From the NCBI RefSeq assembly GCF_964204645.1, contig NC_134027.1, positions 13,486,485-13,550,484 of the forward strand: a stretch of DNA of 64,000 bases. The letters run 5' to 3'. Position numbers and translations under genes: made by a program. The number at the start of each line of letters is the position of its first letter. Within the stretch, counting starts at the first letter, position 1. Positions 7,447-61,945 of the stretch are shown piece after piece. Below the pieces are notes generated by a model. The model saw only the letters and a list, made by a program, of their open reading frames with translations. It searched no databases and had not been told where the DNA came from. This DNA comes from Tubulanus polymorphus. Lineage: Eukaryota; Animalia; Nemertea.

Positions 7447-8557
7447 ATGGGCGGTAAAAAAACTTCTAATACTAAAGAACAATATTTAAGAAATTTATAT
7501 TACAACCCTGAGAGTTCGGTTGCTTATTCTTCTACCAAAAATATATGGCGTCAAGTAAAACAAGATAAATTAGATAAGATAATCCCACAACATTTAGTTA
7601 AATATAAAGATATAAATGAATTTATGTTAGAACAACCAACATATACAACACATAAAAAAATTATTAGAAAATATAAAACTCGTAAAACTATGGTAAGTTA
7701 TGTAGATCAACAATGGCAAGGAGATTTAATTGATATGAAAAATGTTAAGAAAGATAATGATGATTATTGGTGGTTATTGAATATAATTGATATTTTTAGT
7801 CGTTATGTATGGAGCTTCCCACTTTATAGAAAAGATGCTGTACAAACATCAAATGTTTTAAGAAAATTTCTTTCGGATGATAAACTAAAACCAGAAAAAA
7901 TACAATTTGATGATGGAAAAGAATTTGATAATTCACTTGTTCATGAACTCTAATAATCATAATATTAAATACTTTTCAACAAAATCGGATAAAAAAGCAG
8001 CAGTTGTTGAACGATTTAATAGAACATTAAGAACAAGAATGTGGAAATATTTTACCGCAAATAATACTTTTAAATGGATTGATGTTTTACCAAAATTGAC
8101 AGAAGGATATAATAATTCTTATCATTCTTCTATTGATGCTAGAAAACCTGAAAATGCTGAAATTGTTTGGAATAATTTATATGGAGCATTTCTTGTAGAT
8201 GATTTTGGTGAACCTAGATTTAAAGTTGGTCAAAATGTTAGAATTTCTAAGTATAAAAAGATATTTGACAAGGGATACGATCGAAATTTTACTAGGGAAA
8301 TATATAAAATAAAAAAGATAATAACAACAAAACCATATGTCTATAAATTAGAAGATTTAAATGGTGAAGAAGTTGATGGCTACTTTTACGAAGAAGAATT
8401 AAGTTTAACTACTGAAAATCTAGAACAAGAATATAAAATTGAAAAAGTATTAAAAACAAAAACTGTTAAAAGAAAAAAATATTCTTTAGTAAAATGGGTT
8501 GGATGGCCAGATAAATTCAATGAATGGATATTATCAAGTAAAATTAGAAATATATAA
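7447..8557 (+). pseudogene. Retroviral-type (rve) c-integrase with C-terminal chromodomain
   Basis: WQGDLIDM (D), KIQFDDGKEF (D), AVVERFNRTL (E), YNNSYHSSI, and chromodomain YKIEKVL..LVKWVGWPDKFNEWI. One frameshift near 7950. Confidence 0.95.
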
Positions 8558-10888: not shown

Positions 10889-11513
10889 TCACTGTATATG
10901 TGTATCACAGAGCAATCGTCCGTTCTCACTAGCGCCTAGCTGTGATGAGAGGTGTCTCATACTCGGTTGAATTGAGTTATGATATTTTGAATTAAGATGG
11001 TGGGATTTATTGCTTCGAGTATAATATTTTCCACAATCACATAACACTTTTTCATTAGGTTCATATTTAGGCGTAACAATTTCATTATCTAAGTTACATT
11101 GAACTGCAACATCTTTGAATGATTTTTCATTATCTAATTCACATTGAATACCAATATTTGATGAATTTTCATTATAGATAATTTGTTTATCATCAAAATA
11201 ATCTATTCCTAAAACATAATTACTCAAATTTTGATGGTGTTTTTGTGATTCGAGATGTCTTTTATAATTCCTTTTTGTTATAAATTCATTACAAACTTCA
11301 CATTTTATTTCATCCACATTCATATTTTCTAATCGTTCTTTTCTTTCATTGGAATTTTCTGAAGTTATAAAATCTATAACATTTTTTATATGATTTGAAG
11401 ATTTTTTAATGATGAGATTTATTAGATTTATCGATGTATTTTTTACAATATGGGCGATAATATTGATTTTTATTAACATTATTGTTTTCTGGCTGGTGTT
11501 CATTCTCCCCCAT
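10889..11513 (-). pseudogene. Short zinc-finger protein sharing its N-terminus with pPolB
   Basis: Starts MGENEHQPENNN at TAAATG (11513). The first ~110 codons match 49086-49414, then it diverges to CDCGKYYTRSNKSHH. Confidence 0.7.
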
Positions 11514-11594
11514 TTATAAGGAAACAAAATTACTTGTGGTGATGAGAGCTAGTACTCTCGTACTCTGGTATGAAAGCCTACTTTCCCTATTACT
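11185..11594 (-). repeat. Right terminal inverted repeat (~410 bp) of copy A
   Basis: The reverse complement aligns by eye with 49009-49414, the left end of copy B. Confidence 0.8.
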
Positions 11595-13497: not shown

Positions 13498-13662
13498 AAA
13501 AATGTTCACCAGAAATTAAATGTAAATCTCCTGGATTCGTAAATTTTCGGTGTGCTTGTATCTGTCCACGTGAGGAACCAAACGACTGCCAGCTTGGAGG
13601 ACCAACACCGGCACCCATGCCCAGTATGAAACCGTTACCAGCAACCATACCAACTATTGACG
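13498..13662 (+). CDS. Host gene exon: Cys-rich EGF-like module and Pro/Thr linker
   Basis: AG at 13496-97 and GT at 13663, phase 1/1. Encodes KCSPEIKCKSPGFVNFRCACICP..PTPAPMPS. Confidence 0.72.
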
Positions 13663-13774
13663 GTATGAATGATAATACCGAATCCACAAATGGTAACGAT
13701 AGCATTCAATATTTGATTTTCTTTCAAAATCATTTCTTATTTCTACATACAAAGATATTTTACCTGTGTTCTAG

Positions 13775-14029
13775 AACCTTTGTACAACACCTGCGCCTGG
13801 AGATATTTTCGTGGAAAAGCTAAAAGTTTTCAGAGTCAGAGAATGTTTGTAGCCGGTTCGATAGACGCTTGTAAATTAAGATGTTTGGAAGAGAGGGAAT
13901 TCAATTGTAAATCCTTTCATTTTTCACCATATATTGGCTTGTGTTACTTGAACAAATATTGGGAACAAGCTCGAGAATTCGAACCTTCTGGATATTTCTA
14001 CTTCGAAAAACCACAATGTCTTATGAACG
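13775..14029 (+). CDS. Host gene exon: PAN/apple domain
   Basis: AG at 13773-74 and GT at 14030, phase 1/1. SIDACKLRCLEEREFNCKSFHF..CYL..YFE motif. Confidence 0.85.
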
Positions 14030-26975: not shown

Positions 26976-27738
26976 GAAATATCATGCCCTGATTATTTTA
27001 CTTAGATGTTTAATTCATTCATTCCAGTTAATCACTGAACAACATGTTGTGCCTTGCAAATTTAAACGTCACCAGTTGTTATATGAACAGTATTTTGCAA
27101 TGCTTTAACAATTTGCCCGAAATCAGAAGCAAACTGGAAGAATAATCTGCTGTTTGTAAAGTGATGTCGAATTGGTACATTACTGGATAATTATCTGCTT
27201 TGTAAAAAATGTTATTTCAAGTATGTTTTAGGTACTAATGTGACACAATTAATACGACGACACAATCTGAAAATATGATTATAATTTGTGTAATATAAAT
27301 CAGTATCTTTTTTTATTCTTTAAAATTTACGTTTGCTATCGGTGGTTGGTTTTAAATTCTATCTATCATGATGTTCTGTAATATCGGATCGGAAAAGTAA
27401 TAAAAAAAGAAAATTTTAGACTATGTTCGTCCCCGGGACCGATAAGCCGGTGACTGGTGATCGAGTGTACTGTATTTTCTAGTTTAAACTCTGAAAATAT
27501 AGGGAAAGATTGGCATTGCATTCTCAGCATAGCCAATAATAACGTCGTCAATGATTAATTTTGTAGAATTATGCTGATAGAATGTCCAATAAAATTAAAT
27601 TGAATTTTAGAATTCAATCTAATCAATCTAATCTAATCACAGAAATAAAACGAATAAAAAAGTTAATGATTTAAATGATATTGAGGATTGAAACAGCATC
27701 ATTTAATTTAATTCATTCTATATATTTTAACTATAAAA

Positions 27739-28050
27739 ATGAGTGAAAATAAGGTATCAGAAATATTACATCTAATATATAAAAATCAACATAATATTAA
27801 ATCAATTATTATGATTTCAGGTTTATTTTCATTCTCAGTTTATACTATAAAACAGTTGTTAGAATTCTATGATAGCTGTAAAATTAGATACGCTGAATTG
27901 AAAGATAACATAAATTATATTTCAGATCGAATAAATAGTATTAAATGCTGTGAAATATGAAATATGTAATAAAAGATATAAAAATAAAAAATCATTAAGG
28001 AATCACATGTATATTCATGAATTGGATGAGAAATTATACGAATCAAATTA
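27739..28050 (+). pseudogene. Small protein with hydrophobic segment, coiled coil and C-terminal C2H2 finger
   Basis: MISGLFSFSVYTIKQL..NYISDR..IKCCEI matches 47948-48223. Confidence 0.7.
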
Positions 28051-29391
28051 AGCAATAGACTGTTAAATTGGCTGAGATATATAAAAATAGACTATATTAT
28101 AACCATTTCTATATTTAGATTAATAATTCATATTTATAATTTTTATAAAAACTAATTTATACATCTATGTACTAGACGTACGAGTGAGAAACCAAGATTC
28201 TTGCCAAGAAAGTAAGAATTCTTGGATTCTTGGATTCTTACTCGTACCTGCCTTAATTAGTTTTATAAAAATGAATAAATTATATGTTTTCACTTAATAA
28301 AAATAAAAAATAGATTATATTTTAACTATTTCTATACTTAGATTGATAATTTATTCATTTTTATATAATCTAAACTAATTTATATATGTATGTACTAGAG
28401 GTACGAGTAAGAAAGTAAGAATTCTTGGATTCTTGGATTCTTACTCGTACGTCTAGTACATAGATATCATGAATATTTTTATCATATATTTCTGTTTCAA
28501 TATTTATTTATCTCACAGATTTATTATAAATATTTGGAAAAGTATAAATCATATTCAATTATATATTTACATTTATCATTATTAAAAGAGTATTACAATG
28601 AATCCGCTACATTGTTAAACTGTATTAAATTGTGTAGATTGTATATTCATAAACTAAATGATAAATCATGAAATGGACTGTTAAATTAGCTGAAATGTAT
28701 GAAATATTGTATGAAATATTAGTTAATCAAAAAGGGGGTTTTAGGTATCAATGTATTTGATACGTATTAAATACGTATTATGCTTTATTTCTGAAATTTC
28801 AGTCTCAGAAGTAATTTATTCATACATGAAATTAAATTTCTTTACATTTGACTAGGTTTCTTTAACTAAGTTAGTTGGTTTATTGTTTTTCTAGTTGAAT
28901 TCTAGTCAAATGTAAAGTAATTTAATATCAATAAGAAATATTAGAAAAATATTAGAAAAACAATACATAAGCTCCATTTTTCTTGAATAATCAGATTCTT
29001 TACGTATGTCACATACATTAATGAAATCATTAGAATTTATCTTCAAACATTCAGTATATTTTTTCATCTATTCAAAATCCATTTTATCAATTATTTCAAA
29101 ATGATTGTGTGTTATCTTCTTTACTTGGAAAATAGGTTTTCTAATTTTGATAAAATAAAGTGTCGATCGGGGCTATGAACTCCTATTTTTAACTTTTCGA
29201 TGATTTTTTCTATCGAAGACAATTCAAAGTAAATATTATTTAATATTTAATTGTAATGTTTTTATCAATAATTCTCTTAAATCAGTTGTAGTTTCATAAA
29301 AGCCTTGATCTGTTAAAAAATAGCGCGAAATAAAGATCTGTCATACATTTACACTGAGTTGAAAAACCTCTAATTTCAAAATTGTATTATT

Positions 29392-30894
29392 TTAAATTCC
29401 AGATATTTTAGGAGTATAATCATTTAATTTTACTTCAGGAATTATTTCAAGTTTTTTAAATTCTGTCTCAAATAATTCATTATCAATTTCTAATTGTTGT
29501 TTTAATTCATTACAAATTTTATTTCTATTTTTATCTATATCTTCTTGAAATTGTTTAAGTTCTTTCATTTCTTCTAATCTTTCAAATTCACTTTTAGATA
29601 ATAATTTTATATCAAAATCTTCTTCAATATCAAGTGCATCTAATTTATAAAAAGGTTTAGATTTTATATCGTATCTCTTTTTTAAAGTTGTAAAACTAAT
29701 TCCTGTTTCACGTAATTTAAATCTAAATATAAATTTATTCAATACTGTAAACATTGAATTAGTTGAAGATATAACAGTTGCTCCTTCAGTTTTAATATAT
29801 TTTTTTGCTTCAATAATGAACTCTGATTTATCCTCATTTTGATTAATTGTGAGGTATAAACATGAAATATTCTTAATTGTAAACATTGATAAAATGAGTA
29901 AAAAGGAGGACTCTTCAATATTTTTACTTACCCTAGATTTATATCCTATAAATTTCCTAGCTAATAAATCACCAATAAATAATCAAGTTGTAAATAAGCA
30001 GGTGAATAGTTAATATTTTCTTTCTTGAAGTATTGTTTTATTTTTTCCATCATTTTCAATTCTCGTTTAAATGAAATACTTGTTATTTCAATTCTAATCA
30101 ATCCTGTTTCAATTGATTTTTCAAATGATTCTTTTAACCTCTCTTGATAGCAATTTATGTAACTCATTAAATTTGAACCGAAAATTATATTTACACTAGG
30201 AGATTTGAATTGACATGCTGTTTTATTATAAATCTTTATTTTATCATCCATATGTAATGCTGAAACACAACTATAGAGAATTCTTTTAGAACTTTATATT
30301 TTCTATTTTCGAACATTGATTTTATTTCATCTGAATTAAATGATCCTTTAAAATCTTGTGTAACATCTACATCTGATATATTGTAATTTTTTTCATTTAA
30401 TAATTGTTCAATATTATCCATATTCTGTATCAATTCATTTAAATTTTGATTGTATAATGAAATTTTAAATACTGCAAATAATCGGTTAATTTTAATTCTT
30501 GATTAATTTTACTCAAGATATATGATTTTGAATTATCATCATGAATTGTTAAAACACGTGTAATTTTTATAGCTAAGTTATCTAATATAATATTTCCTTG
30601 ATTAAAACAATCTTTAATTTCATAATGGGTTATCTTTCTCTGATAGACGTTAAGAAAAATTGTCCTATTTTCTTTAATAATTTCTTTTTCTAACATGATT
30701 TTATATAGCATTATATTATCGCAAAATATATCTGACGTTTCAATTAATTCATTATTTTCAGATTTATAATACTTATTCATATTTACTCCTGAAATATCAG
30801 CTAAATCATTATTCACAGTTAAATTATATAATATTGAATTTACGTATTTATTACTCATGCCTTTCGCGGGAACTTTAATTAACTTTGAGCACAT
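29392..30894 (-). pseudogene. Hypothetical protein, possibly a Rep_trans-like replication initiator
   Basis: Four consecutive ORF pieces with motifs ISDVDVTQDF, KIKIYNK and GLIRIEIT in that order. Confidence 0.4.
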
Positions 30895-31152
30895 TTATAT
30901 ATCAAATTTTTATTAAAATAGGTTAAAATTCAAAAAGAGTTAGAGTTCGCTGAAACCTTACGCTTTGAAATATTTTTTGACCCTTATTGGATCTTATTTT
31001 TCTAGATTATGCTAACACTTTACTCACACTTTTTAGATATGAATATTTTAAGAATAATAGGGGTTTAGTTGTTTCATATCAAAGGTTGAAGGGTCGGGTG
31101 AGTAAAAAATAAAAATAAATTCGAGCGTGCGAGAATTTATTTTTCATTTTTT

Positions 31153-40355: not shown

Positions 40356-40841
40356 AGTAATAGGGAAATGGCGCTTTCAGATCAAAGGTCGAGAGGTCGA
40401 ACTCATAAAAAAATGAAAAAATAAATTCTCGCACACTCGAATTTATTTTTTCATTTTTTTATGAGCTCAACCTCTCAACCTTTGATCTGAAACCACCATT
40501 GCCCTATTACTCTTAAAATTTTCATATATATATATATATGAATAACATATAAATGAATAACTTTTAAAATCAATTTTAATAAAAAATTTAGTATTGAAAT
40601 GGAAGCAAATAAGTATTACTGTTTCAACATGTAAAATCAATATAGATAAATCTCAAAAAGCAAGACACAATAAAACTAAAACACATTTAGAGAATAAATT
40701 AAAGTTAAAATAAAAAGATGATATATTAGAAACTAAATTAGATGAATTAAAGAATGAAAAAGAAATATATAAATGTGATACGTGTAATCAATCATTCAGT
40801 GATAAAATGTTAATCAATTTTGATAAAAATATGTATTATAA

Positions 40842-41615
40842 ATGGAGTCAGAACAATCACAAGCTGTAAATATAAACAATAATGGTGTTATAAATATTTA
40901 TCAGAAGTCATGTTGTAAATGTAAAATAAATAAATCATTAGCAGAATTTAATAAAGATAAAAATTCTAAAGATGGTTTACGAAATATTTGTAAAAGTTTC
41001 AAAAAAGCATATGATAAACAATATTATATAAATAATACTGAAAAATGCAAAGAAAAAAGTAAACAATATTATCTAAATAATCTAGAAAAATGTAAAGAAA
41101 CGAAAAAACAATGGAGAGAAAATAATCAAGAATATATTAGAGATTGGAAAAGAGATAATCGTGATTATATAACAGAATATATGAGAGAACGATACAAAAC
41201 AGATCTTAATTTTAAATTGAAACAATGTTTACGAACTAGATAATCAAAATTATTCAGTAAAGAAACGCATTCAGAAACACTAACAAATTTATTGGATTGT
41301 TCAGATGAATTTCTCAAATCATGGATAATATATCAATTCGATGATAAAATGAATATAGATAATTATGGTGAATACTTTCATATTGATCATGTGTTACCGA
41401 TATATAAATTTAACATGATGGATGAATACAATAAAAAACTTATTTGGAATTTGAAGAATTTAAGACCTTTTGAAAAGAAAGAAAATAAAATTAAACATGA
41501 TAAACTAGATTTACAGTTATATTTAGAACAGTTAACAAAGGCAAAGAAATTCATTGAATTATGGAACAATGATCCGAATAATGAAAAATATGTTGAATCT
41601 TTATTGAGTGGTTAA
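40842..41615 (+). pseudogene. HNH-family endonuclease with N-terminal zinc ribbon (NCLDV/phage type)
   Basis: CCKC..FNKDKNSKDGLRNICK, a charged helical repeat, then QFDDKMNIDNYGEYFHIDHVLP..NLRPF..EN. One in-frame stop at 41241. Confidence 0.78.
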
Positions 41616-41649
41616 AGAATAATAGAATTGAAATAAAAAATATTAAAAA

Positions 41650-44050
41650 AACAATAACTTCAACTAGCCATTATTTCTATTTTAATTTTTTTCAAAATCT
41701 ATTATTTCTTTTCAAAAAGGGAATACTTTATGTCACAAATAAAAAATACTAAAAAAACAATAACTAATACTAAAATTCTTTAACTTTAACTATCTAGTAT
41801 CATTTAGTATCAATAACTTAACTAACTAGCATCATTTTATAATACTTATAATATTTTTTGTCGCTTTTTTCTCCTATATAAATGTCAAAGAAATCTAATA
41901 AGAATAGTATTAATATTGAAAAAACATTAGATGATTTAGGCATTAGTGATAATAAGGATATTCCAACCAAAATTGAAAATAATTAGTTGTCAAGAATTAG
42001 ATGCTATGAAACCAGATAAAGTAATAAAATATTTTAAGATTTATGAAAAGGCAAGATTAGCTAGAATAAATGATTCTATTTCTGATGGTATTGTCAAATG
42101 TTATTCAAAATTATGTAACCGGTTAATGTCAATTGATGATGAAAATAAATTATATAGTGATTTGAAAAATGACTACTTAGTTATGACTGAATTACAAAAA
42201 TGGGTCGGATACGCTTCATTCCAAATAGGATCGGTTATGACATTAATCTCTACTGGTGTCATAACATTTTCGAATATCAAGCCTATAGAATAAAAATCAG
42301 GTAAGAACGGAACAGATGGCGCCGTACGACACCCAAACGGTGAAACAGAAAATGAATCAGAACAAAAATTAACTAGAATAAATGAGTGATGGCGTTAAGA
42401 AAAAACCTAGATCCGAGAAACAAATTAAATGGGCAAGAGAATTAGGTAAAAGATCTGCAGAATTAAAAAAAGCTAAGAAAAAGAAATTAACTGATATAAA
42501 TGAGTCACAGACTTTATCTGATATTGATTCAAATAATAATCCATCTAATGCTTCTAATGCTGGAAGTAATAATAAATTATATATTACAATTGGATTAGTA
42601 ACAGTTATTATATTCTCTGGTGTAATATATAAATATAAGTATAAATCTGATGATAACAATAATGATTCCAATGATAATAAATCTATTATACCAGAAAATA
42701 CATAGAATAAAATACATGTTTTTATGAAATAGTAATTCCACCCGGCGTTTTCGTTGAATTGATTTTCAGTTTGAGGATTTATTATCGAGGATCCGAAATG
42801 ACTTATCTGGACTGTTATAATTACTGCTCCTAATAGATAGACAAAAGTAGTGAGATATCGAATCCTAATTTAAATAAAAAGTATTTAAAAAACAATAACT
42901 TCAACTAGCTAGTGAATTATATTTTAATTCTTTTCAAAATGTAATATTTCTTTTCAAAAGGAGAATACTTTATATTTTGAATAGAATTGAATAAAAAAAC
43001 AATAACTTCAACTAGCTATTCAAATCTAGTTAATACTAGAATTCTTTAACTTAACTAAGCTATTATTAATTACAGAGTTACTTGTATCATTCTATAATAC
43101 TTATAGTATTTTTTTCGCTTTTTTCTCTAATATAAAAGTCAAAGAAATCTGATATTGAAAAGAAAATTGAGGATTTGGGCATTACTGGCAATAATGATAC
43201 AGTTGTTTCTAATTGTGCTCAAGTTGATAATAATATTGATTATGAATACTATTTAACATGTAAGCATCATCTTGAGTTACTAATTGCCGGCGGCAAATCT
43301 AAGGACTTCTTGGGAAAAATTATAACTTATCAAGAACTAGATGCCATGAAACCAGATAAAGTAATAAAACATTTCAAAATATATGAAGAAGCTAGATTAG
43401 CTCGAATAAACGACTGTATAAGAGATGGTATTATAAAATGTTACTCTAAATTATGTAACCGGATTATACCAATTGATGATGAAAACAAATTATTTAGTGA
43501 TTTAAAAAATGACTACTTAGTTATGACAGAACTACAGAAATGGGTCGGAAACGCTTCATTCCAATTAGGAGGAATAATGACACTGATTTCTTCTGGAGTT
43601 ATAACATTTTCTAACATCAAAACTATAGAATACAAAGATAAAAGTAAATCAGAAGATATTGAATCAGAACGAAAGTAACTAAAATAAATGAGTGATGATA
43701 TTAAGAAGAAACCTAGATCCGAAAAACAAATTAAATGGGCAAGGGAATTGGCTAAAAGATCTTCTGAGTTAAAAAGAGCTAAGAAAAAGAAATTAACTGA
43801 TATAAATGAACCACAGAAATTATCTGTTATTGATTCGAATGATAATCCATCTGATTCGTCTAATGCAGGAAGTAATAATAAATTATATATTACAATTGGA
43901 TTAGTAACAGTTATTATATTTTCTGGCGTAATATATAAACATAAATCCAAATCTAATAATAATGATTCCGATGATAAACCTATTATACCAGAAAATAAGT
44001 CAAATCATAAAGTCATTGAAACTAAATCTAAATTATTATTAATGGATTAA
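41650..44050 (+). repeat. Tandem duplication of the AACTAG spacer + gene X + gene Y cassette (41650-42705 / 42890-44050)
   Basis: ORFs 41946-42293 and 42382-42705 match 43175-43678 and 43688-44050. The upstream spacers are also homologous. Confidence 0.88.
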
Positions 44051-44056
44051 AATAAG

Positions 44057-44605
44057 ATGAAAAAAGAACAATATTTAAGAGAGTTATATTACAACCCAGA
44101 AAGTGAAGTATCATATTCTAGCGTTTCAGAATTATGGGATAAAATTAAATCTGATAAAGAAAATGGTGATATAAAATATAGTGAATTAAAATCATCGTTA
44201 CAAAATCAACCAACATATCAAATCCACAAGAAAATGGATAAAACTTATTTAACAAGGAAAGTTATGGTTTCATATATCGATCAACAATGGCAAGCAGATT
44301 TAATTGATATGAAGAACTTAGAAGAATACAACAAAGGATATTTCTGGATATTAAATGTTATATTCAGTAGATACGCATGGTCAATTACCATCAAAAATAA
44401 AACTGGTATAGAAGTAATAAATGCTTTTAAATCAATATTTAAAGAAGCTATTCCAGATAAGATACAATTTGATGAAGGTAAGGAATTTTATAACAAACAT
44501 TTTAAAAAACTATTGTCTGATCACGATGTAGATTATTTTTCAACACATTCAGATAAAAAAGCATCTATTATAGAAAGATTTAATAAAACAATTTATCATG
44601 AGTAA
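44057..44605 (+). pseudogene. rve c-integrase, 3'-truncated; divergent paralog of 7447-8557
   Basis: YYNPES, WQADLIDM, KIQFDEGKEF, SIIERFNKT. Confidence 0.9.
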
Positions 44606-48223: not shown

Positions 48224-48344
48224 TTATTTAAGAAAGAAATTAGAAAAATTAATAAATATTTGCTAGTTTTTAATTAAATATTTTATAATCACTTTTTAAA
48301 TATTAAACTTTTAAATGATTAAATCAAATAACAATTAAATTTAC

Positions 48345-49008
48345 AGCCAAACAATTTAATATTTCAACAGTCTCACAATTTAACATTTCAACAGTCAAAC
48401 AATTTATCATTTTAACAGTCGAACAATTTAACATTTTAACAGTCTAACAATTTAACAGTTTAACAATTTAACATTTCAACAGTCAAACAATTTATCATTT
48501 TAACAGACGAACAATTAAACATTTTAACAGTCTAACAATTTATCATTTTAACAGTCGAACATTTTAACAGTCTATTAATTTAACATTTTAACAGTCTAAC
48601 AATTTAACATTTCGACAGTCTAACAATTCAACATTTCAACAGTCAAACAATTTATCATTTCAACTGTCAAACAATTTATCATTTCAACTGTCAAACAATT
48701 TAACATTTCAAATGTCAAACAATTTATCATTTTAACAGTCTAACAATTTAACATTTCAACTGTCAAACAATTTATCATTTAAACAGACTAACAATTTAAT
48801 ATTTCAACTGTCAAACAATTTATCATTTCAACAGTCTAACAATTTAACATTTTAACAGTTTAACAATTTAACATTTTAACGGTCTAACAATTAAACATTT
48901 CAACTGTCAAACAATTTATCATTTTAACAGTCTAACAATTTATCATTTAACAGTCTAACAATTTATCATTTTAACAGTCTAACAATTTATCATTTAACAG
49001 TCTAACAA
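48345..49008. repeat. Minisatellite, ~24 bp unit AACAATTTA(A/T)CATTT(T/C)AAC(A/T)GTC(T/A), ~27 copies
   Basis: Directly visible tandem array abutting the left terminus of copy B. Confidence 0.95.
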
Positions 49009-49085
49009 AGTAATTGGAAGATGTGGGTTTCAGATCAGAGGACGAGACACCACTCATCACCACAAGTAATTTTTTTTCCTAATAA

Positions 49086-52000
49086 ATGGGGGAGAATGAA
49101 CACCAGCCAGAAAACAATAATGTTAATAAAAATCAATATTATTGCAAATATTGTAAAAAAATACGTCGATATATCTAATAAAACACGACATGAAAAAACT
49201 GCAAATCATATAAAACATGTAATAGATTTTGAAACTCCAGAAAATTCCAATGAAAGAAAAGAAAGATTAGAAAATATGAATGTGGATGAAATAAAATGTG
49301 AAGTTTGTAATGAATTTATAGTAAAAAGGAATTATAATAGACATCTCGAATCACAAAAACACCATCAAAATTTGAGTAATAATGTTTTAGGAAAAGATTA
49401 TTTTGACGATAAACCTCAAAAAGTAAAAAAACCAACTTCAAAAACTAAATCCATTTCAAATAAACCTTACATGGAAAATGTTAGAAATTATATTGATTCA
49501 CTAGAAATAAAAGATACAATTGAAATTTTAGAAACATTACATAGTAAAATTGGTCCTGCAGCTATTATATTTAGATTTTTTAAAGGTACAACAATAGAAG
49601 ATTATAGTACATTTAATGAAATAATAGAAAAAATACTAGATTTGATAACAGATGTTGAATATCCAAAAATTAGTATCTCTGGGAAAGTAAGTTTTATAAA
49701 TTCAGAAGAAAAAATGAATTATAATATTCAAACACACTCTGAAGAAATAATTTCAAAAACACAAATAAAAGAGAAGTTAGAAAAAATATTTAATAAATTT
49801 AAACGTCATATTGAAGAAAGATATTTTGAGGGTTCTGGCTTAACATTGAATGAAATTATATATTTAGATTTAAATGTTTATAATACAAAAAGAAATAAAA
49901 CATCAAAAAGTAATAAAATGTTTAAAAATTATTCAAACTTTACAACAGAAAAGGATATTAAAGCATCATCTTATATTAAATTACCATTTACAACAAAAGC
50001 AGTAATAAATATTCAAAATGAAGATAATAAATGTTTTCTATGGTCAATTATTAGTTGCTTACATCCAACACAGGAAAATGTTTGTAGAATAACAGATTAT
50101 CGGAAATATGAAACATTATATAAAATTGATCAATATCCAGTAACTATAAAAATGATTTCTAAAATAGAAAAAGTTAATAATTTAAAAATAGATGTATTCG
50201 AATTAATGCAATTACCAAAGACAAAAGGTGAAAATATTAAAGATTATACATTGGAAGTTTTATATTTAACAGAATATTATGATGATGAAAATGCTATAGA
50301 TTTGTTATATTACAAAAAAGATGAAAATGAACATTATATGTGGTTAAAACAAATTGATTTATTCTTTAGAACAGAAAGTGATCATCATCGTAAAATTTAT
50401 CTATGTAGAAAATGTTTATCTAAATTTATGACTGAGAATACATTATTAAAACATAAAGAATTATGTGATTTTAAAGATTTTTGTAAATTAATAATGCCAA
50501 CAGAAAAAGATTATAAATTGAAATTAACTAATCATAAATTTAAGAATATTGTTCCATTTGAAATTTATGGAGATTTTGAATCGTTGAATAAAGAATTAAC
50601 TGATCAAGATAGAAAAGAAATATATAACAAAAAGCAATTATTAAAATCAATGGATAAAGGAAATGAATTAAATTAAGACACAATACAAGACCCACCAATT
50701 ATAAATACAATTAAAAAAGTTCATCAAAGAGCTGCTGCTTATGGAATTTATATAAAATCAAATTATCCTGAATTATATGAAAGTCAATATATTTCTTTTA
50801 GAGGTGAAGATGTATTTAATAATTTTTGTAACAAAATGATTGAATTAGAAAGTGATTTTGCAAAATTATTAAACAAAAATAAAAGAATAGTTATGACAAA
50901 AGAAGATAAAATTGATTTTAATTATGCAACTCACTGTTGTTATTGTGAAAAACGTTTTTATTCATTTGATAAAAAAGTTAGAGATCATGATCATTTAAAT
51001 TCAAAATATCGTGGAGCTGCTCATGAAGATTGTAATTTACAAGCTAAAAAAGTAAATTTCGTTCCAATATTATTTCATAAATTATCAGGCTAGGATACCC
51101 ATCTATTTATAAAACAATTATCAAGGAAATTGGGCACAATTAATCAAGAAATAGAAGAATATAATGCTATGAATGGTGTAAATGTAAGAAAATATGATTT
51201 TAAACTATTAGCTAAAACATCTGAAAATTATATTTCATTTCAATTTGGTTGCATTAGATTTTTAGATTCTTATAGATTTCTAGCAAGTTCATTAGATATA
51301 GATGCAATGATGCAACCTCAACCATATAAACATTTTATATTAACAGAAGTTGAAAATGATGATAAAACTGATTGGGAAAGCGCAATTGCGAGTTTAAAAG
51401 ATGAAGCACCAATTGGTTATTTCTTTGTAGTTGATTTAGAATATCCTGAAAATATAAAGTTTAAAACAAGAAATTTACCTTATTGCCCAGAACATTTAAC
51501 CGTAGATGATAGTTATTTAAGTGAATACCAGAAGAAAATAAAACCGAAAGATCATGTTTTTACAGAAAAATTAATACTTACTCAAAATAATAAATACAAT
51601 TATATTGTTCATTATAGAATGTTAAAATTTTATCTAAAACAAGGAATGAAATTAAAGATAGTACATAGATATATTGAATTTAATCAATCGAAGTGGTTAG
51701 AAAAATATATAGATTTCAATACTCAACAGAGAACCATATCAAAAACAGATTTTGAAAAAGATTTCTTCAAATTAATGAACAATAGTTCTTATGGTAAAAC
51801 ATGTGAAAATATTAGAAATAGAAATGATATTGAATTAGTAAATAATTCTGAAAGATTAAGACATTTACAATCAAGTCCTAGACATTTAGGAAATAAAAGA
51901 TTTGAAGATTATTTAACAGCAGTTAAATTAAAAAGAACGTCAATGAAATTTAATAAACCTATATTCATCAAAATTATTAATATAAGTATCAAAATTATTA

Positions 52001-53546
52001 ATGTATGATTTTTATTATAATGTTTTACAACCACTTTTTGGGGAAAAGCATATTGAAATATTATATTTTGATTCTGTAACAGCTGACACCCCAATATTAT
52101 TAAAATGTAATGATAGAATATTGATAAGAAGAATTTCAGAAATAATTCCAAAACAAAATGAATGTTATATTTCATATGGTGAAAAAGAATTAATACAAAT
52201 AAATGGATTAATGGATGTTTGGACAAGAAATGGATGGAAAAAATTAAAGAATATTATTAGGCATAAAACAAATAAGAAAATCTATAGAGTTAGAACTAAA
52301 TTAGGGTTTGTTGATGTTACAGAAGACCATAGTTTAATTAAACGAAATGGTGATGAAATAAAACCAACTGATATAAAAATTGGAGATGAATTATTACATA
52401 AAAGATTTTTCCAAAGAATGAATCATATATCATTTGATGAAATTATTGATAATATTTATAATATAGAACCCGAAACATTAGAAGAAAAAGAATATTTTAT
52501 CAAAGAATTTTTCATGGGAGATGGTTCAGCAGGTGTGTATAATTATGTTAATCGCACTCAATATTGCTGGTATTTATGCAATCAAGATTTGAAATTATTA
52601 GAAAGAATAAAGAAATTCTGTGAAGAAGTTTATTCACATAAAACATAGGAATAATCCTAAAGATTTTGCTATAAAATATAATGACGAATTCTATATTCAT
52701 GCAATAGTGAAAAGTAATACTTCAACTAAAGAAAAGATAGTTCCAGATTATGTATTAAATGCAAGAAATAATTTAAGAAAATGGTTCTTCATTGGATTCT
52801 ACGCAGCAGATGGTACTAAAAGTTTCAAAAACCGCAAAACAATATCTTTAGCTCAAAAAGGAAAAGTTGCTATATCAGGATTAAATATATTATGCAATTC
52901 ATTAGGTTTTAATATGAATATTGGATTGATTAAATCTAAACCAAATTGCTTTAATTTAAGCCATGTAGAAAATGAGTTAACAGAAGGAGTTAAAGATTTA
53001 TTTGAAATATATAACCCAACAGATTATGTTTATGATTTATCAACTGAAGATGGTACATTTAACTGTGGATTTCCATTAATAGCAGTCAATACTGACGCGT
53101 ACATACTAAAAATCAAAACAAATGACATAACAAAAGACTTAAAAACATTAAAACATCATTTTGATTTTAGCAATTATCCCAAAGATCATGAACTATTTAG
53201 CAATGATAATAAAAAGATTCCTGGTAAATTTAAAGATGAATTAGGGGGTGATGAAATGATTGAATTTGTTGGGATAAGAAGTAAAATGTATAGTTATAGA
53301 ACAAAAGACCATGAAGCTAAAAAATTAAAAGGAATAACAAAACATGTGGTTGATAAACATATAGAATTTCAAGATTATATAAAGTGTTTATATAACTCAA
53401 TTGTAATGAAACATAAAATGAATTCTTTAAGATCAGAAGATCACGAGATGTACATTAATGAAGTTGAAAAAACTAGTTTGAATCCATTTGATGATAAAAG
53501 GCATATTTTAGATGATGGTATAAAAACATTACCTTATGGCCATTAA
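49086..53546 (+). pseudogene. Protein-primed family B DNA polymerase with zinc fingers, endonuclease VII-like insert and intein
   Basis: SYIKLP..NIQNEDNKCFLW, Exo I YGDFES, RDHDH..YRGAAH..CN, Exo II FHKLSG*D, motif B KLMNNSSYGK, motif C split as YFD/TDA. Has stops, frameshifts and a deletion removing motif A near 51297. Confidence 0.95.
52073..53090 (+). mobile_element. Intein (HINT domain plus LAGLIDADG homing endonuclease) in PolB motif C
   Basis: Block A SVTADTPIL, block B VTEDHSL, block C FFMGDGS, block E GFYAADG, block F YVYDLST, C-terminal Asn followed by +1 Thr. Confidence 0.93.
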
Positions 53547-54870
53547 AACATAAAATCAATATCATCATACTCGAAATCACTATTGGCTTCTTCATTTTCA
53601 TTTAATTGTTCTTGTATAATTTGTTTAGGTTCTTCCATTTCATTTTTCTCATTTAAATAAAGTTCTATCTTGTACCACATTTCATCTCGCTCTCTTTGTT
53701 TCTTTTTGTTCGTTAATTCGTCAAATGGAATTATAATATCGATGTTCAAATAATTTACAATCTTATTTAAAAAGAATTCATAATTAATTGAATCTGTTAT
53801 TCTATTTTCCAAATGATACATTAATATTTGTTTAAATATTTTTTTTATATTTTCCATATCTTCTTCTGTTAATTTTGGTTTTTCATAATAATCGTTAAAT
53901 AATAAATATAAATACATTTTCTTTGGTTTTGTGTTAAATGTTAATGGAATAATTGTTTTTATAATATCCTTTTTAGTTATTTCACCATTTTTATTTTCTA
54001 TTATTTTCATTTTTTAAGCCATTGCTTATATTCTGGTGTATGATCTTCTATAGAAAATATTTTAAAAATTTCATCAAGATAATTTAATTTTGGTTCTATG
54101 AGAAAATCTCTAGTTTTGTCTTCACCCCATAAATTCTTTTGCCATCCACATTCATTACAAAATAACACAGTACCTTCTTGTCTTAAGGTCGCATAACTAC
54201 ATTGTGGGCATTTTTGTTTATAATTTATTGGTAATAGATCTTCATTAAGCTCTTGGTATTTTCTTACGTTTTCTTTATGTTTTATTGTTCTATTATGTAG
54301 ATTTGAATTACTTGTTGTAATAATCAATTTACAATATTTACAATAATATGTTTTTCTTGTTAATTCATTACATTGTTTTTCTAACTTTTCAACTGTTTCT
54401 TTATTATCTGGTAACGTTTTCTCATATTTTATTTTTTCTAATAAACTATTTTTTCTTTCATTGAATTCTGCTTCAAATTTATTAGAAATTTTATCTATAT
54501 GTGCTTTACGAAATTGATGATACTCCCAATCTTCTATATTTTCAGGGCTATATTTTATTCGACAAGGCTCACAGAAATGATATTTTATATTATCCTTATC
54601 ATAGAATAAGAAAGGTCTTTTCCAAATAATTTCAGGTTCAACTTCAACAGAATTACTATTACTTTCATTACTATCAACATTAGCCGTTGCGCCATTAATT
54701 TTACACTTCTCTGAATGTTTTTTAACGTAATTTCTTGAGAATTATTTATTTCATTTTGGGCAGTTTATTTTAGGGGGTTTATAATTTTCATCATGTTTTT
54801 TCATATGTCGAGCCATATTACTTTTTCTTAGAAGTTCATCACAAATTTCACATCCTATCTTCTCATCCAT
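53543..54870 (-). pseudogene. Multi-zinc-finger protein with poxvirus A2/VLTF3-like domain (copy B)
   Basis: Zinc ribbon CPQC..EG..FCNECG, then FLIEPKLNYL and IKKIFKQI..INYEFFLNKI..DEMW. Frameshift at ~54010. Confidence 0.75.
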
Positions 54871-55884
54871 TTATTTAGGAAAAATTGTATTAAAATTAAT
54901 TTTTAGTGATGAGCGGTAATTTTTTTATGTTATAAATAATGGTAGAATTAAACGAATACAGAATATTTGTTGATTCTAGAAAACTTACAAATTATAAATC
55001 ACATAATTTAATAGTTCAATTAGATAGAGAATTTAAGAATTGTGTTGATTTAAAATTAGTATATATAAGTTTATGTGACTCATTTTACAATATATCGGAT
55101 AGCATTTAATTTTTTCAATCTTTTACAAAAAAAGGAATAAATGGTTTTTTATATATTTAAAACCAGGATTATATAATTTAGATACATTAGCACAAGAAAT
55201 TAATAGAAAAGCTCGAGCTAAATTAGGAAGTGATTCCGGATTTAGTATAAGAATTTTAAAAAGTGATAGTTCCAATAAAATAAAGATTAGGTTAGCTAAT
55301 GACGAACAATTTAAATTTACAGTAAGAAAACCTTTAGGTAAACCATGGACTCTAAAACGAAGGGACGTGAAACGAAAAACGCCGCCTTTGATCTCCCCTG
55401 TAGCATCCGAGCTACGGCTCTCTGCAGTTCGTCATTCGCGTGGCAACACCTGTCAGTGTGGTTAATTGCAGTTTTGTTGCGCGCGCAGCTAAAACAGCGA
55501 CCCATATGGACGAAAACACTTCCATAGTAATCTACACGCTGTGAATTATCAGCAGCTAGGGCGCCATTGAAATGGTTGTTAAGGGGATAGAATCTCAGTG
55601 CAATCATGGACTCTAAAACACCTGCATTAATTGAATATTGTTAATAAAATCAATCTACTTTACTTAATTACAACACATGTCTCAATATATGACACGGCCT
55701 CATCATCTGATTTTATTTCAACAGCAATAATTAGTAGGTCAATAATTAGTGTACTACACGCATAACTTATTTTAACTAGGGGTCAGTCACCTATATTTAT
55801 GAACAATGTCTAAGTAAGCATATAAGCAAACATATATAGCGTATACTAGTCAGAAGTAATTTTACACCTGGTTACAACGGACTT

Positions 55885-57350
55885 ATGATGGAAAACAACC
55901 CGACCAAACGACGACTGAATAATGACATTTTTGATTTGGATAAGGAAATACGCTGGGATAATTTGATAAGCGATGATGAATTGCTAGCTGAATGCCCTGT
56001 GTTGATGGAATCTTTTTTTAAATGTCCTTTTTGTGGCAAGACGTTTAAAAGTTCATCAGGATTTACCGGGCACATTAAAAAACAGCACGACGCAAACCCC
56101 AAGGAATATGCTGGTAATTATATATTCTAAACTCTATTGTATTTACTGATAACATATATGAAAAGTTCCTTATTCTTAAACTTCACATTTCATATTTCAG
56201 CATCTAAGCATAAAATGAATCAGGTTTTAAAGGAGAATGATCATGACCATTCATCAATTTCTTCGAGTACGTAGCATTTTCTGCCTGGTGAAATGAAATT
56301 ATCGATACGTATATGCATCTATACCGCTCTTTCAATTATTATCTTTCAGAGCCATACCTGGATGAGAATGAATTCTTGAAATCGTTCGAAAAAACTGTGT
56401 GCGACGCATTAAGAGAAGTGAAGAGCGATCCGATAATAATGACGTCTCCTTTTGGCGGTATCTTTGAAAAATTGATCGAAGAATCGCACAATGCGCAAAA
56501 AACAACCGAATTGTGCAATGTTTTAGCACCTCGAGTCGAAAAGTGCATACGTGCAGGAGAAACCAGCAAATTTCCCAGTATCAGTCGGGAATTGATTTGG
56601 AATCAATTCCATAATCTGAGGACGGATGAACTTCTAATCGATGAACTGTGTTCCACATTTTCGCGTGACAAAATGAGAAAAGCACAAGTTCGCATGCTTG
56701 TAAGCTGCTGGTTGTCACAAGTGTTTAAACTGTCAGTGATTTGGCATTTCAGCAGCGATACTGAAAATTCAGTCGAGGGGGACGAGTGCGATTTAACGAA
56801 ATCTGAGGAGGGTGTCTTGCGTTTCATCGCTGGTTATATATGTCGAAAATTGACAGATCGTTTTCAAAGGAGTAATTCACCAGTTTCGGCGATCTACCTG
56901 GAAGTATTGGGAGAAATATCCCAGAAAAGCGAATCGTTTGAAAAAGAGGACCTTTTCCTTGAACACACCGAGACGTGGCTAACATTAGTCAACCGTGGGG
57001 GATTGACGTTCGTGACCGATGCGTTTTATTTAATGATATTGAGTATCGAGAAATTAGTAAGGAAAGACTACAATCGCCATGAAGCAGACTCTAATCTAAA
57101 TGCTCGTGTGAGAAAACGTATTATAGAAGACCGGCCGGTACATGTGTACCTAGATGAAATAACGAAAAAACTATCTGACGAGGAGAAGCAGGGTTTCCTC
57201 TCCGTAGTTGTGAACCTGTATCTCAACATCCGCAGTCATGCATATGCCAAAGGAATTGTTGATTTCCACGAACAAAGAACTTCAACGACAAGCAAAGGCC
57301 AGAAAGGACTGAGAAAATCTTTAAAGGATTGCACCAACAGGTATATATAA
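55885..57350 (+). CDS. Accessory gene of the P element: C2H2 finger plus P-transposase C-terminal-like domain; exons 55885-56113, 56201-56266, 56350-57350
   Basis: Phase-compatible GT/AG junctions give an open ~431 aa frame containing CPFCGKTF..HIKKQH, LRFIAGYICRKL and VNRGGL. Confidence 0.8.
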
Positions 57351-57474
57351 TCTTATAGGACATTTCTTTATTATAAACATCAATTCTATATTTACAAACT
57401 AATACATACAAAAACAAGAAAATACATTTTCATGAATGGATAATATGACAGTAACATTTTCAATATTCTAATTC

Positions 57475-60242
57475 TCAATGATGGCGTTTCTTTTTTGGAA
57501 GTGGAGTATTGTCGTTTACATATTGCACCTGATAATCAGCAGTTACATTTCCTCTAATAGGCGCCAATGCGTGTGATTTTAATGTACATATTGCACTGGA
57601 ATTATAACAAAATTGATATACATTCGGATTATCATTTCCACCCCCCCCCCCCCCCCCCACTGTCTCTGTTTCCCAAAGAACTGCTCAAGTGGGTCCTGAT
57701 TAAATTTTTCTGATAACACGAAAGTTGCCCCATGTTGTAATAAGTATGTACAGCACTCAATGAATGATTTAATTGTGATCTCAATACCATCAAGAGTTTG
57801 ATAAGAAAGAATCATTCGTGCTTTATCGGATTTCTGAATATTTACATGTGTTTCATCAATTTCAGCCTTCCAACGCTTTAAATCATCCAAGAACCATTGG
57901 AGCCAGGTAAGCCGATCATCGTCAACATCAGTATATGCATTAAGATCTTTATTCAGTGACCTTTCACCTTGTCTGAGGTGACGCACATTAAGACAATCAA
58001 AGAACTTGTTTATATTTCTAATAAATACGACCGTTTCTGAAGTCTCATCTCCCTGAGTTAATTGCAGGGCATTTGCAACTGACGAGCTAAGAATTTGAGC
58101 AGCTAATTTTACCCGCATTTTTGAAAATGATGTTAGGTAGACATGCGCACGAGTCAACTTGGGTACAAGTTTTAAATGGTTTCTGGCTTCATAATTCTGA
58201 AGCTCAACAATCTGTTTCCATGAAATGTGTTTCCCCCTTCGCCACATATAACGTGTATTGCTGTTTGCACCAGAGCTATAAAAACAGTTTCTGACAGTTT
58301 TAATGAGATGAGGGGCATCCGATATAAAGTACAAATCTCTGTCAGTAGCGAAAGGGTTTTTTGTTTTATACACAACGCCTTCAAAACCTTCAATTCGATG
58401 CATATTAAAAAATCGTCTATTCGATGATGCCCCATCACATGTGAGGGAAAGGACTTTCATACCATACAGTTCTAAATACATAATTGTATCCCATACCAAA
58501 GGATAAAGAAAATCCGCTGTAATGCCATTGCAAGGAAAGCTTGCAATTGGATATGAAATATTATTCGTAAGTCCCCTGACCATGAAAGTTAACATATAAG
58601 TTGCTAAGGGAGGCTTTGATGTGCCTTCTGCCATATTGCGTTCATAGTTAATAATACAATTGGAAACATCATCCAAATTCGTATACCCAATAAGCTCACC
58701 AGATGCTTTATCATACACTAAATCAGCTTTTATTTTAACTTCATCGTGCAGCAAACCTACATAACGAACATGTTCTAAATATGAATTTTCATTTTCAGAT
58801 TCCTTCAGCAATTCAACAAATGACTCTACTTGAAAACCAGACTGTGGTTTAAATGAATGCGTATAGTCTATCAACGTTCGCGAAGATGGTAAACTTATGA
58901 AACCGGAACGACGCATTGCTTCATATGATCCGGATGATTTTCCTCGAAGATACAGGCACCACTTTATTATCAGAGGGTGCCATCGGATTGATTTCTTGCT
59001 GGACGTCTGTGCGCACTTCAATTGCTGGTCCCAGAATACTCTCGAAAATGTACCTTCAGCAAATGCCGAGTTATTTGGATGAGTCATTTCTTCGTTGTGA
59101 TGTTCCATAATCGATTGAAAATCATCAGAACTTAATTGATCGAGTTTAGTTCCCTCTCGGTCAATTCTCTTTTGAATTTGAATTTCCAATCTTTTAATTT
59201 TTAGTTGGAGTCTATCAATTTCGCGCTTCATTATTCTTAGTTTACTATCTTTTTCATTTGCCGATAAATTTGAATATGTACAGTGTGACGACAAGCCAAT
59301 TTTTTGGGTAGAGTCACTATTCTGCAATTTTGACATTCTGGCACGCAACCTAACACGAAATTTGCTGCAGTTACTGCACCGGGCGCTGAATCGGTCAATA
59401 AGTAGATCGCAATTAGAAGAACGAATTGTTGATGTGTACCGGTTTCCAAAACATGTTTGTCCATAGTCTCCTTCTCTGATTGCAGAAATAGTCTCTGAAC
59501 CTTTCTCGGTTATTCCGGATCCTACCGCTATCAGACTATTGAATTTTTCATCACTGTTGCCGCTGCATATAAGATATGATTCTACAATTTTTGGTAAATG
59601 TAGAATTTTCGCTTTAATCAATGTCTTTGAAAGAAATTTCAAGTTCGAATAATTTTTGTATAAATAATGTTCAGAATCTAGAACTTGATTGTGCACCTTA
59701 ATTGTTATTTCATATTCGTTCGTAATTTGAATCCAAATCGATACAACTGGACCACTATCCGTGTCAGTTAATTTGACCAGCGTTAACCCAACATCATTTA
59801 ACGTATGAACTTTCCATGAATCCAACGCTAGCTTCGATTCCGAAATTTCCTTCAGTATTTCATTTCTACTGGCATTTTGTATCTGTAAAAACAAATTAGA
59901 TCAAAATCATTATGTAAAATATCGTGAAATCCGAAGATATATTCCTCCAAAAATTTGTTCTGATGTTAATAAACTTAATAAAAATCATATCTTACCGTCG
60001 ATGAATCGTCTGTTTCATGGTTTAATGAAATTTCTGGTTCGATTACATCTTCACATACCTGTTGAAATGGCAAAAAAGATTTGATTTACTGACAAGAAAT
60101 AAACTACATGTATATATAGACTGATGTGAGTGCATTTTATATGCTGAGGATATCTTACCTCACTCTGTTCTTGCTGGGGTTGGCCAGGATCTGCAGGACG
60201 TTTTCGAATCCTGCCTATTCTCTTACGTCTCGGCTTTTTCAT
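57475..60242 (-). CDS. P-element transposase; exons 60242-60159, 60058-59996, 59882-57475, with one frameshift in a G18 run
   Basis: LPSSRTL, LLHDEVKIK (D), TCDGASSN (D), DAPHLIKTVRN, KMRVKLAAQ, NQDPLEQFFG (E). Phase-0 introns. Confidence 0.92.
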
Positions 60243-61945
60243 ACCTAAAAAAAATTGTTACATTGAAAAAATTTATCTTCCCAACAAATAAACACTTGGC
60301 CTGGATGTGGGATATGGCCTAGATACACACTGCTGCATTATCATTCGGTGTGATCATAACACTGGCAATGCGGAAGTAAACAGACCCGTATCTATGGAAC
60401 AAGATCTCAATCTCTGTAGGCCTATACACAATAGTGACGTCACATCGAGTTCCGGAGTAATAATTACGTTAGTATTTCAATAAAAAGAATACTTTTCAAA
60501 TCAGAATTATAGACCAGATAAATGATCATCTTCAATACAAATGTAATCAAGCCAGAAATTAAACTTTCGTTGTTTCGATATTGTTTTCATAATGAATTAA
60601 TATTCTACGGATGTTGAATAACTTGGTTTACAAATTTTATTATTTTCATATCATTTATTTAATTTGGTCGAGAAAATGAAAGGAAGACTGGGCAAAATAT
60701 TGATATACCAACAAATCTATCGAACCGATTAAAATATAAAGTATATCAAGCCATACGGTTGGGATTCATAAATAACAATTTGGCAATTCGATTAATATCT
60801 GAAATTTACCCTCTAACAGAATTGGTTTACTAAATGAACATATCGCGAAGTCTTGGTTCGAACTCGCGGAAATCATTGAGGATAATTTGATTGCAATCAA
60901 CAGCTTGCGTGTTTCGAATATGTGTTAAATTCAGACGACCCCGATAAAAATAGAATTTACCTTATCGATCTTAAGTATCTCTAGAGTGTAATCCTTTTTA
61001 TAAAATGGGAGTTAAACACACACGAATCGACAAATCTGAAGATTTATGTCACGTACAAAATCACGCCGCTAAACACTGCAGTCAAATATGGCGGTTCTCC
61101 TTGCTCAGAGCTGTTCGGCTATAATCGGAAACACTCGGTTTCCGATTACAGCGTAGCTACGATCCAACGCGCGTCGACAGCTGGCCCTTTGATCTTTAGC
61201 TGCGTTTCACGTCCCTTCGTTTTAGAGTCCATGGGTAAACTGTTAGGAATTAACCCAGATATTGTTACAGCATACGCAGAAGGTAGATCAAACTTAATAC
61301 CTTTTACACACTTTTATATTTATTGCAATTTAATTGATCCTACAAAAACATTCGAAGCAACTAAAGATACAATTTGTAATTCTAGTATATTATTTTTGCC
61401 ATTAAAGAATGTCAAACAATTTGGAACGCAAATAAATTATAATTTAACTGAATGTGATTTTAAACCTTGTATTCCTCAATTTAATAATTTTAAATTAGAA
61501 ATAAGAAATCATAATGGTTATTTAATTGATTTGAATAACTTTCATGTGATATATGAATTAGTTATAAGATGTAGAGAGTAATTTTTTCACTATATAAATG
61601 AATATAACTGTTGGACCGAGTATATGTTTTGGGTTTGATTTTAAACGTGAGAAAGAAATGAAATTTAATATTAATGATGTAATTACACATATTAAAAATA
61701 TTGCATTTTCTAATGAAACAACATTTGAGTATGAAACAACGATAGATAAAGAAACATAAAAATGTAGTAAAGATTACTAATTTAATTAGAGAATCTTTAA
61801 GATTTTATGAATTAGATGAAGATTTTATCATAGATGATATTAAAAACATATTAACCAAAATAAAAGTAGTAATGAAATAAATGTTGAATTAATCATAAAT
61901 AAGTTAACTAAATATTTTGAAGATAGTAATTTTTTTGATAAATAA

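Follow-up and report, generated by a model that had tools for sequence, protein, structure and literature searches.

The window analyzed here is a 64,000-nucleotide stretch of DNA, and within it lie two A+T-rich, decayed Polinton-type elements, each with a protein-primed DNA polymerase B (pPolB) gene, a VLTF3-like gene, and zinc-finger genes. The polymerase gene that is our main subject, copy B, runs along the forward strand and is interrupted in motif C by a LAGLIDADG intein (positions 52073 to 53090), such that the motif reads LYFD / SVTADTP ... GFPLIAVN / TDAY. The N-extein upstream (49021 to 52072, located by tblastn with the proteins P0001 and P0295) is broken: it contains stops and a frame shift near 51960, it is missing ~190 residues, including motif A, and it carries an endonuclease-VII-like insert whose match to PF02945 (E 0.009) is below the cut-off. 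The C-extein (53091 to 53546), which starts T-D-A-Y, is 75% identical to the intein-free P0295. That the gene encodes the protein-primed polymerase of a Polinton is indicated by P0001, which is recognized by PF03175 and can be aligned along the gene in the window.

The motifs retained by the copy B insert are those of an intein, namely, Ser1, a block B TEDH, a block F YDLST, a terminal Asn, and a +1 Thr. Its N-terminal splicing (HINT) region (52076 to 52336), with blocks A and B, matches TIGR01445 over residues 26 to 112 of the 52001 frame with 33.5 bits, above the cut-off of 24.5. Two LAGLIDADG helices with acidic residues (..MGDG and ..YAADG) lie at 52496 to 52525 (block C) and 52785 to 52814 (block E), and the C-terminal splicing region (53028 to 53090), with blocks F and G, has Asn as its last residue; all of these are on the forward strand. 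Pfam searches with the two pieces of the insert gave Intein_splicing at 20.1 bits and LAGLIDADG_3 at 17.7 bits, both below cut-off (at the second helix, LAGLIDADG_3 has E 0.004). An initial annotation, made from the letters alone, had called an intein here and had described the split motif, Ser1, Asn, the +1 Thr, and the lack of a penultimate His. All of these are seen in the sequence, and the profile search that it proposed bears out the identification, given the TIGR01445 match and the intact relatives that pass the Pfam profiles, as does the LAGLIDADG-intein fold predicted for one such relative, P0004. The penultimate residue is Val; His at this position is dispensable in some inteins, and in this family it varies, with His present in 3 of the 7 pPolB rows and in 56 of the other 141.

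The initial annotation also took the intein to be full size, and here it was mistaken. The N-terminal intein frame ends at a stop (52646 to 52648) and the remainder lies in a different frame; compared with copy A, ~50 bases have been deleted near 52645, between the two LAGLIDADG helices, so the endonuclease frame is not intact. The first helix carries in addition a private, nonconservative change, a place where the window disagrees with 254 of 257 reads. Against the intact intein of P0001, the copy B intein is 59% identical over 354 columns, and the class 1 residues S, N, and T are found in the window insert and in all six of the intact pPolB inteins compared, the insert sitting at a conserved site, in frame in the intact relatives and frame-shifted in copy B. 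The copy B intein is a genuine but dead relic, neither full size nor functional. A chance motif match was rejected as an account of the insert, and a Hedgehog/Hint or BIL domain is ruled out by the presence of an endonuclease and by precise empty alleles. The T-D-A that the initial annotation singled out, in place of the usual D-T-D-S context, does read so, but it is not unusual: it occurs in both window copies and in 13 of 133 intein-free relatives, and decay was rejected as its explanation.

Beyond what the initial annotation described, the window holds a second intein-bearing copy, copy A, at 1 to 552 (forward strand), which is clipped by the window start, has a deletion of its own, and is followed by a frame-shifted C-extein (553 to 1008, forward strand). 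The aligned blocks of the two inteins are 92 to 96% identical and the breaks are at different places. Because the two differ by 13 synonymous changes in 90 sites and 22 nonsynonymous changes in 405 (dN/dS 0.38, p 0.005), we conclude that selection was acting on the protein during part of their divergence. A VLTF3-like gene lies 3' of pPolB in both copies (in copy B at 53543 to 54010, reverse strand; PF04947, 26.5 bits, cut-off 25), and the copies align downstream (430 to 2805 with 52968 to 55343) at 90%. Inside copy B is a P-element-like transposon (55343 to 61234) with 32-bp terminal inverted repeats and a 7-bp target duplication, the transposase of which is an open 585-residue frame (57579 to 59336, reverse strand); this transposon splits a gene whose frame at 61231 to 61581 is possibly penton-like, with no profile match to that frame.

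A frame-shifted, retroviral-like integrase with a chromodomain (7447 to 8557, forward strand) belongs to copy A's element (rve at 7447 to 7950, 36.1 bits, cut-off 32.6; Chromo E 5e-5), and none was seen in the retained part of copy B's element. A related Polinton fragment 5' of copy B has a truncated integrase (44057 to 44605, forward strand; rve E 3e-6, below cut-off) that matches copy A's integrase at 65%. Capsid, packaging ATPase, and protease had no Pfam match among the 55 window frames, copy A being clipped by the window start. Positions 11185 to 11594 match 49009 to 49414 in inverted orientation (89%), which suggests that the elements share ends; neither has both ends within the window. 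Between copies A and B are LINE and LTR remnants and spliced host exons (approximately 13500 to 14027, forward strand, with AG/GT borders), the second of which encodes a PAN domain (PAN_1, 28.7 bits, cut-off 21.4).

Several further pieces are worth recording. A tandem repeat array immediately 5' of the copy B polymerase (48315 to 49014) is perhaps part of a terminal repeat. More pieces resembling the 5' end of the polymerase gene lie at 10889 to 11594 (reverse strand), where they may mark an inverted terminal repeat duplicating the start of that gene, and at 40624 to 40806 (forward strand). The fragment at 40842 to 44605 represents a second Polinton family, with an integrase interrupted by another transposon remnant and a tandemly duplicated two-gene block (41976 to 42700 and 43316 to 43997, 81%). 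Finally, an A+T-rich block at 27000 to 31000 contains broken frames (29392 to 30894, reverse strand) and inverted repeats, with no Pfam match.

Intact relatives exist. A search with the N-terminal intein piece matched 214 proteins, and among the 120 listed, 11 are, in our reading, Polinton-type pPolB or fragments; in the remaining listed matches the domains are PF00136 PolB or those of topoisomerase II, and the insert mostly lies at YGD/S...N/TDS, which agrees with the initial annotation's statement that this pol-c site is shared with giant-virus PolB inteins. Six pPolB inteins of 339 to 354 residues are intact (P0001, P0003, P0007, P0008, P0138, and P0314), and all six retain Ser1, TEDH, both LAGLIDADG helices, the block F Asp, the terminal Asn, and the +1 Thr. 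P0314 and P0003 pass PF14890, and intact relatives pass PF14528 and PF05204. An AlphaFold model of the intact relative P0004 (pLDDT 91.7) is predicted to fold like LAGLIDADG inteins: its best PDB match is the TliVMA intein (7qsu, E 2e-18, TM 0.63), it also matches PI-PfuI, PI-SceI, and I-DmoI, and the named viruses whose polymerases match it best are a phycodnavirus, a Pandoravirus, a Megavirus, and a Marseillevirus. When viral and metagenome contigs were scanned, 37 and 80 loci were recovered, with a pPolB extein in 0 of 117, and P0001 as the query gave no locus.

Two side observations concern this wider family. The P0004 cluster (55 members, 15 listed) consists of 362- to 365-residue frames that are almost the intein alone; its members share ~11 residues ending Y-M-D before the intein and stop 4 to 7 residues after it. 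The cluster is possibly a free-standing intein gene family derived from ectopic homing, or it may reflect gene calling on decayed copies. Type II topoisomerases carry the same intein family too, inserted at D-x-D / T-D-G, a mimic of the polymerase site, and these inteins (P0006, P0066, P0067, P0076, P0080, P0083, and P0094) form one clade (support 99).

Are there alleles without the intein? The initial annotation proposed looking for them among genome copies, and they were found, with a different spelling from the empty site that it had proposed. We used short reads from a run with the same species label from a different study (X5, of which 12% was read); the independent evidence comes from X5 alone, since another run, X1, is identical to the host exon across ~790 bases, which makes it a possible source of the window. 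In X5, the exact empty site is seen in 49 reads (28 starts): in these, nine letters separate 52072 from 53100, and they encode T-D-S in three codon spellings. Read depth across the intein is 156 to 261 (likeness 82), versus 5.3 for the host exon (likeness 88), which serves as the single-copy reference. Thus, we estimate ~40 filled copies (29 to 49) per haploid set, a rough figure from one 458-base bin, together with a similarly rough ~13 close empty copies, and conserved flanks that reach, roughly and by read depth, ~130 copies. In the window's species, filled copies have T-D-A and empty reads have T-D-S, which fits co-conversion during homing.

The same patchiness is seen across the family. 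Among 126 database polymerases, 116 are empty at the site, 7 are filled, and 3 are ambiguous, and the nearest exteins to the window's polymerase (77%) are empty. On a 148-row extein tree with 15 filled and 133 empty rows, the intein state changes 8 times, all changes being forced by starred branches, compared with a mean of 14.4 changes for shuffled states. The closest view comes from the P0314 cluster (136 members), in which 7 of the 15 listed members are filled, 6 are empty, and 2 are fragments, with filled and empty exteins 93.8 to 98.7% identical. Here, all 10 strictly diagnostic columns (of 1121) fall at −6 to +44 of the site (Fisher p 2e-11, for protein-level columns that together represent one event), and residues −1 to +9 of the filled members match other families rather than their own. 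A second pair, P0138 (filled) and P0141 (empty), is identical at 740 of 742 residues, with no differences near the site. The patchy distribution and the P0314 tract would fit homing with co-conversion, and ordinary recombination could give a pattern like that tract.

In total, these observations are consistent with a reading that we consider probable, in which the copy B insert is a broken LAGLIDADG intein in motif C of a Polinton pPolB, in what is probably an animal genome, and belongs to a Polinton-specific lineage that likely stems from a single old takeover from a giant-virus polymerase and has since likely spread by homing. Inteins splice via attack by Ser1, cyclization of Asn, and the +1 Thr. 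We infer that, in an intact copy, the intein would be translated within the polymerase and would then splice out, restoring the catalytic D-T-D; as the site is essential, any loss of the intein would have to be exact. In this model, the endonuclease would cut the empty motif-C site in another Polinton copy, and the cut copy would be repaired from an intein-bearing copy, acquiring flanking codons too.

Where would homing take place, on chromosomes or during free replication? One alternative holds that it occurs only while Polintons replicate extrachromosomally, in a virus or plasmid phase with mixed infections, and that the chromosomal copies are passengers of ordinary integration. The mechanism is the same as in our preferred reading and only the location of homing differs, and we regard this version as a serious contender that falls just short of an even call. 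Polintons are virus-like and swap pPolB genes, according to the accessible part of 10.1101/2023.08.22.554363; the 7 filled P0314 members are 98.6 to 99.7% alike and form one branch, as if one converted element had been amplified; and the two window copies differ across the intein and flanks alike. Against a purely extrachromosomal venue, a single species has both filled and empty alleles, which offers chromosomal targets. Taken to its furthest, the chromosomal version would turn the giant-virus intein into a naturally occurring homing drive that acts on the Polinton copies dispersed through animal germ lines. Such a drive would convert chromosomal copies that are still empty, and it would already have moved between two classes of polymerase, elicited resistant target sites, and given rise to a family of free-standing intein genes; we put this forward tentatively, as a rather doubtful extension.

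Could the intein instead have been inherited vertically with its polymerase, with empty sites produced by precise loss or ordinary recombination and with an endonuclease that drives nothing? Intein and extein identities do track each other across five pPolB families, and the lack of differences near the site between P0138 and P0141 is what such a history would leave. We nonetheless find it improbable: there are 133 empty rows to 15 filled ones with 8 forced changes, the P0314 tract at −1 to +9 matches other families and not its own, both LAGLIDADG helices are kept in all six intact pPolB inteins compared, and the presence of the intein in the class of P0008 requires a jump.

Returning to the preferred reading, the case for a giant-virus source rests on trees. 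These were a quick IQ-TREE of 64 rows (64 of 110 extracted inteins, 300 to 460 residues in length), a 148-row FastTree, and separate trees of the splicing domain and the endonuclease; all intein trees are midpoint rooted, with ~20 giant-virus rows to each pPolB row. In both the 64-row and the 148-row tree, the pPolB inteins group as a single clade (support 99), and giant-virus-type PolB inteins surround that clade in all four trees, as the initial annotation's proposed phylogeny would have it. The sister of the clade varies, being 8 rows with a G-F-P-L-I tail in the 64-row tree (94) and 4 other rows in the 148-row tree (98). In the splicing-domain tree, the pPolB inteins nest among 13 tail-sharing rows (91), and in the endonuclease tree they fall within a 41-row group that includes the tail-sharing rows (95). 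One tail-sharing locus, L004, comes from an Imitervirales IM_01 genome (PMC8575486 supplement). Because pPolB and giant-virus inteins are 35 to 45% identical while their exteins do not align, we conclude that the intein jumped between polymerase types, and on these midpoint-rooted trees the direction would be from giant virus to Polinton.

The initial annotation proposed that the intein had moved in from a large DNA virus. The nesting among giant-virus PolB inteins supports that origin, and the fresh arrival that it pictured gives way to an old one, with the sister group differing between trees: across the five pPolB families, intein identity (43 to 65%) tracks extein identity (40 to 70%), so the acquisition was old and not a fresh jump into copy B's element. 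P0008 has a 43 to 46% identical intein in an extein that BLAST can barely align to the others, and we read this, from the sequence identities, as a second jump, between pPolB classes. Might Polintons have been the donors and giant viruses the recipients, or might both have acquired the intein elsewhere, for instance from phage or archaeal PolB? The roots are midpoint roots only, and a structure atlas returned generic LAGLIDADG intein clusters only, with look-alikes (0.91 to 0.93) that include phage and bacterial LAGLIDADG inteins. Set against this, diversity is far greater among the giant-virus-type PolB inteins, which enclose the pPolB clade in all four trees, and the splicing domain groups with the one subclade that shares the G-F-P-L-I tail (support 91). 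We judge such a reversal or third source slightly less probable still than vertical inheritance.

The host of the intein-bearing element is probably an animal, to judge from the company that the element keeps. All 28 species-named relatives of the P-element-like transposase among the 120 listed are animals, and the 6 organism-named polymerase relatives among 120 listed are 5 molluscs and 1 Sulfurimonas; together with the LINE and LTR remnants and the spliced PAN-domain exons, these make an animal host likely, and the check for a nonanimal or chimeric contig that the initial annotation called for thus came out in favor of an animal-type context. A nonanimal host, or a chimeric or symbiont contig, is very unlikely: Polintons and inteins occur in protists as well and one extein relative (P0294) has a bacterial label, but the transposon with exclusively animal named relatives sits inside copy B, 5 of 6 organism-named extein matches are molluscs, the stretch also has LINE/LTR remnants and a spliced gene with a PAN domain, and one independent whole-genome shotgun run covers both the host exon and the element. 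P0294 itself, a close Polinton pPolB relative labeled Sulfurimonas sp. in UniRef, likely derives from a misbinned contig.

How does this system compare with known ones? Fungal VMA1 (PI-SceI) and archaeal VMA inteins resemble it in fold, as in the 7qsu, PI-SceI, and I-DmoI matches. VMA inteins home into empty alleles, and they do so between alleles of one host gene, whereas the targets here are dispersed copies of a mobile element. Giant-virus (Nucleocytoviricota) PolB inteins share the motif-C YGD/TDS site, the Ser1...Asn/Thr arrangement, a length of ~350 residues, two LAGLIDADG helices, and a penultimate residue that is often not His. They differ in that the host protein here is the protein-primed PolB of an integrating element, with unalignable exteins, and in that the intein here is multicopy in the chromosomes of a eukaryote, with empty alleles alongside. 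The accessible text of PMC5784728 counts 67 viral DNA polymerase inteins and cites a title on invertebrate iridovirus inteins; there and in the corresponding part of PMC10710043, eukaryotic inteins are placed in fungi, algae, protists, and giant viruses, and PMC11409957 writes of their “complete absence” in metazoans. The inteins of Klebsormidium, Tetrabaena, and Hondaea (PMC10710043, accessible part) likewise lie in a viral polymerase gene on nuclear scaffolds, but these are giant-virus insertions in algae and a labyrinthulid, and that part of the paper mentions neither Polintons nor animals.

Polintons themselves offer closer parallels. As Polintons, Mavericks, and adintoviruses are portrayed in the accessible part of PMC8502044, the window elements resemble them in pPolB, the rve integrase with a chromodomain, the A+T-rich multicopy state, and the animal-type genome, and differ in being decayed, with capsid, ATPase, and protease not detected in the window. 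Nuclease domains inside pPolB are known as HNH and VSR inserts (10.1101/2023.08.22.554363; PMC11161782), for which an origin in intein invasions has been suggested (PMC11161782); in the accessible parts of these sources, they are fixed domains with no splicing domain reported. The endonuclease-VII-like insert of the window's pPolB is a further likeness. In contrast, the Polinton intein has a complete HINT plus LAGLIDADG architecture and breaks up the active site, and near-identical copies differ in whether they have it. Our literature search, which covered titles and abstract openings and had subscription journals, Repbase, InBase, and survey supplements outside its scope, turned up no intein described from an animal genome or from the pPolB of a Polinton, in line with the initial annotation, which knew of none in a metazoan Polinton pPolB; the Polinton-specific lineage is apparently undescribed so far. 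It resides in an endogenous virus-like element and not in a host gene. Such a lineage is a route for inteins into animal chromosomes, and it is a record of genes passing between giant viruses and Polintons, which must share a cell. Moreover, the system is multicopy, and one genome has filled and empty alleles and possibly resistant ones as well, so that the invasion, decay, and loss of a homing element become directly measurable.

The candidate resistant alleles are a lead only. In a 75-row pPolB clade that includes P0314, 13 of 64 empty sites are T-D-S, compared with 67 of 69 outside it; the other 51 comprise 31 C-D-S, 11 T-D-A, 7 T-D-G, and 2 others, any of which may be endonuclease resistant. 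This clade is probably the radiation of one host, such that its sites are not independent. When the tree is built with the site excluded, the +1 state (Cys or Thr) switches 15 times, and 5 of these switches are forced.
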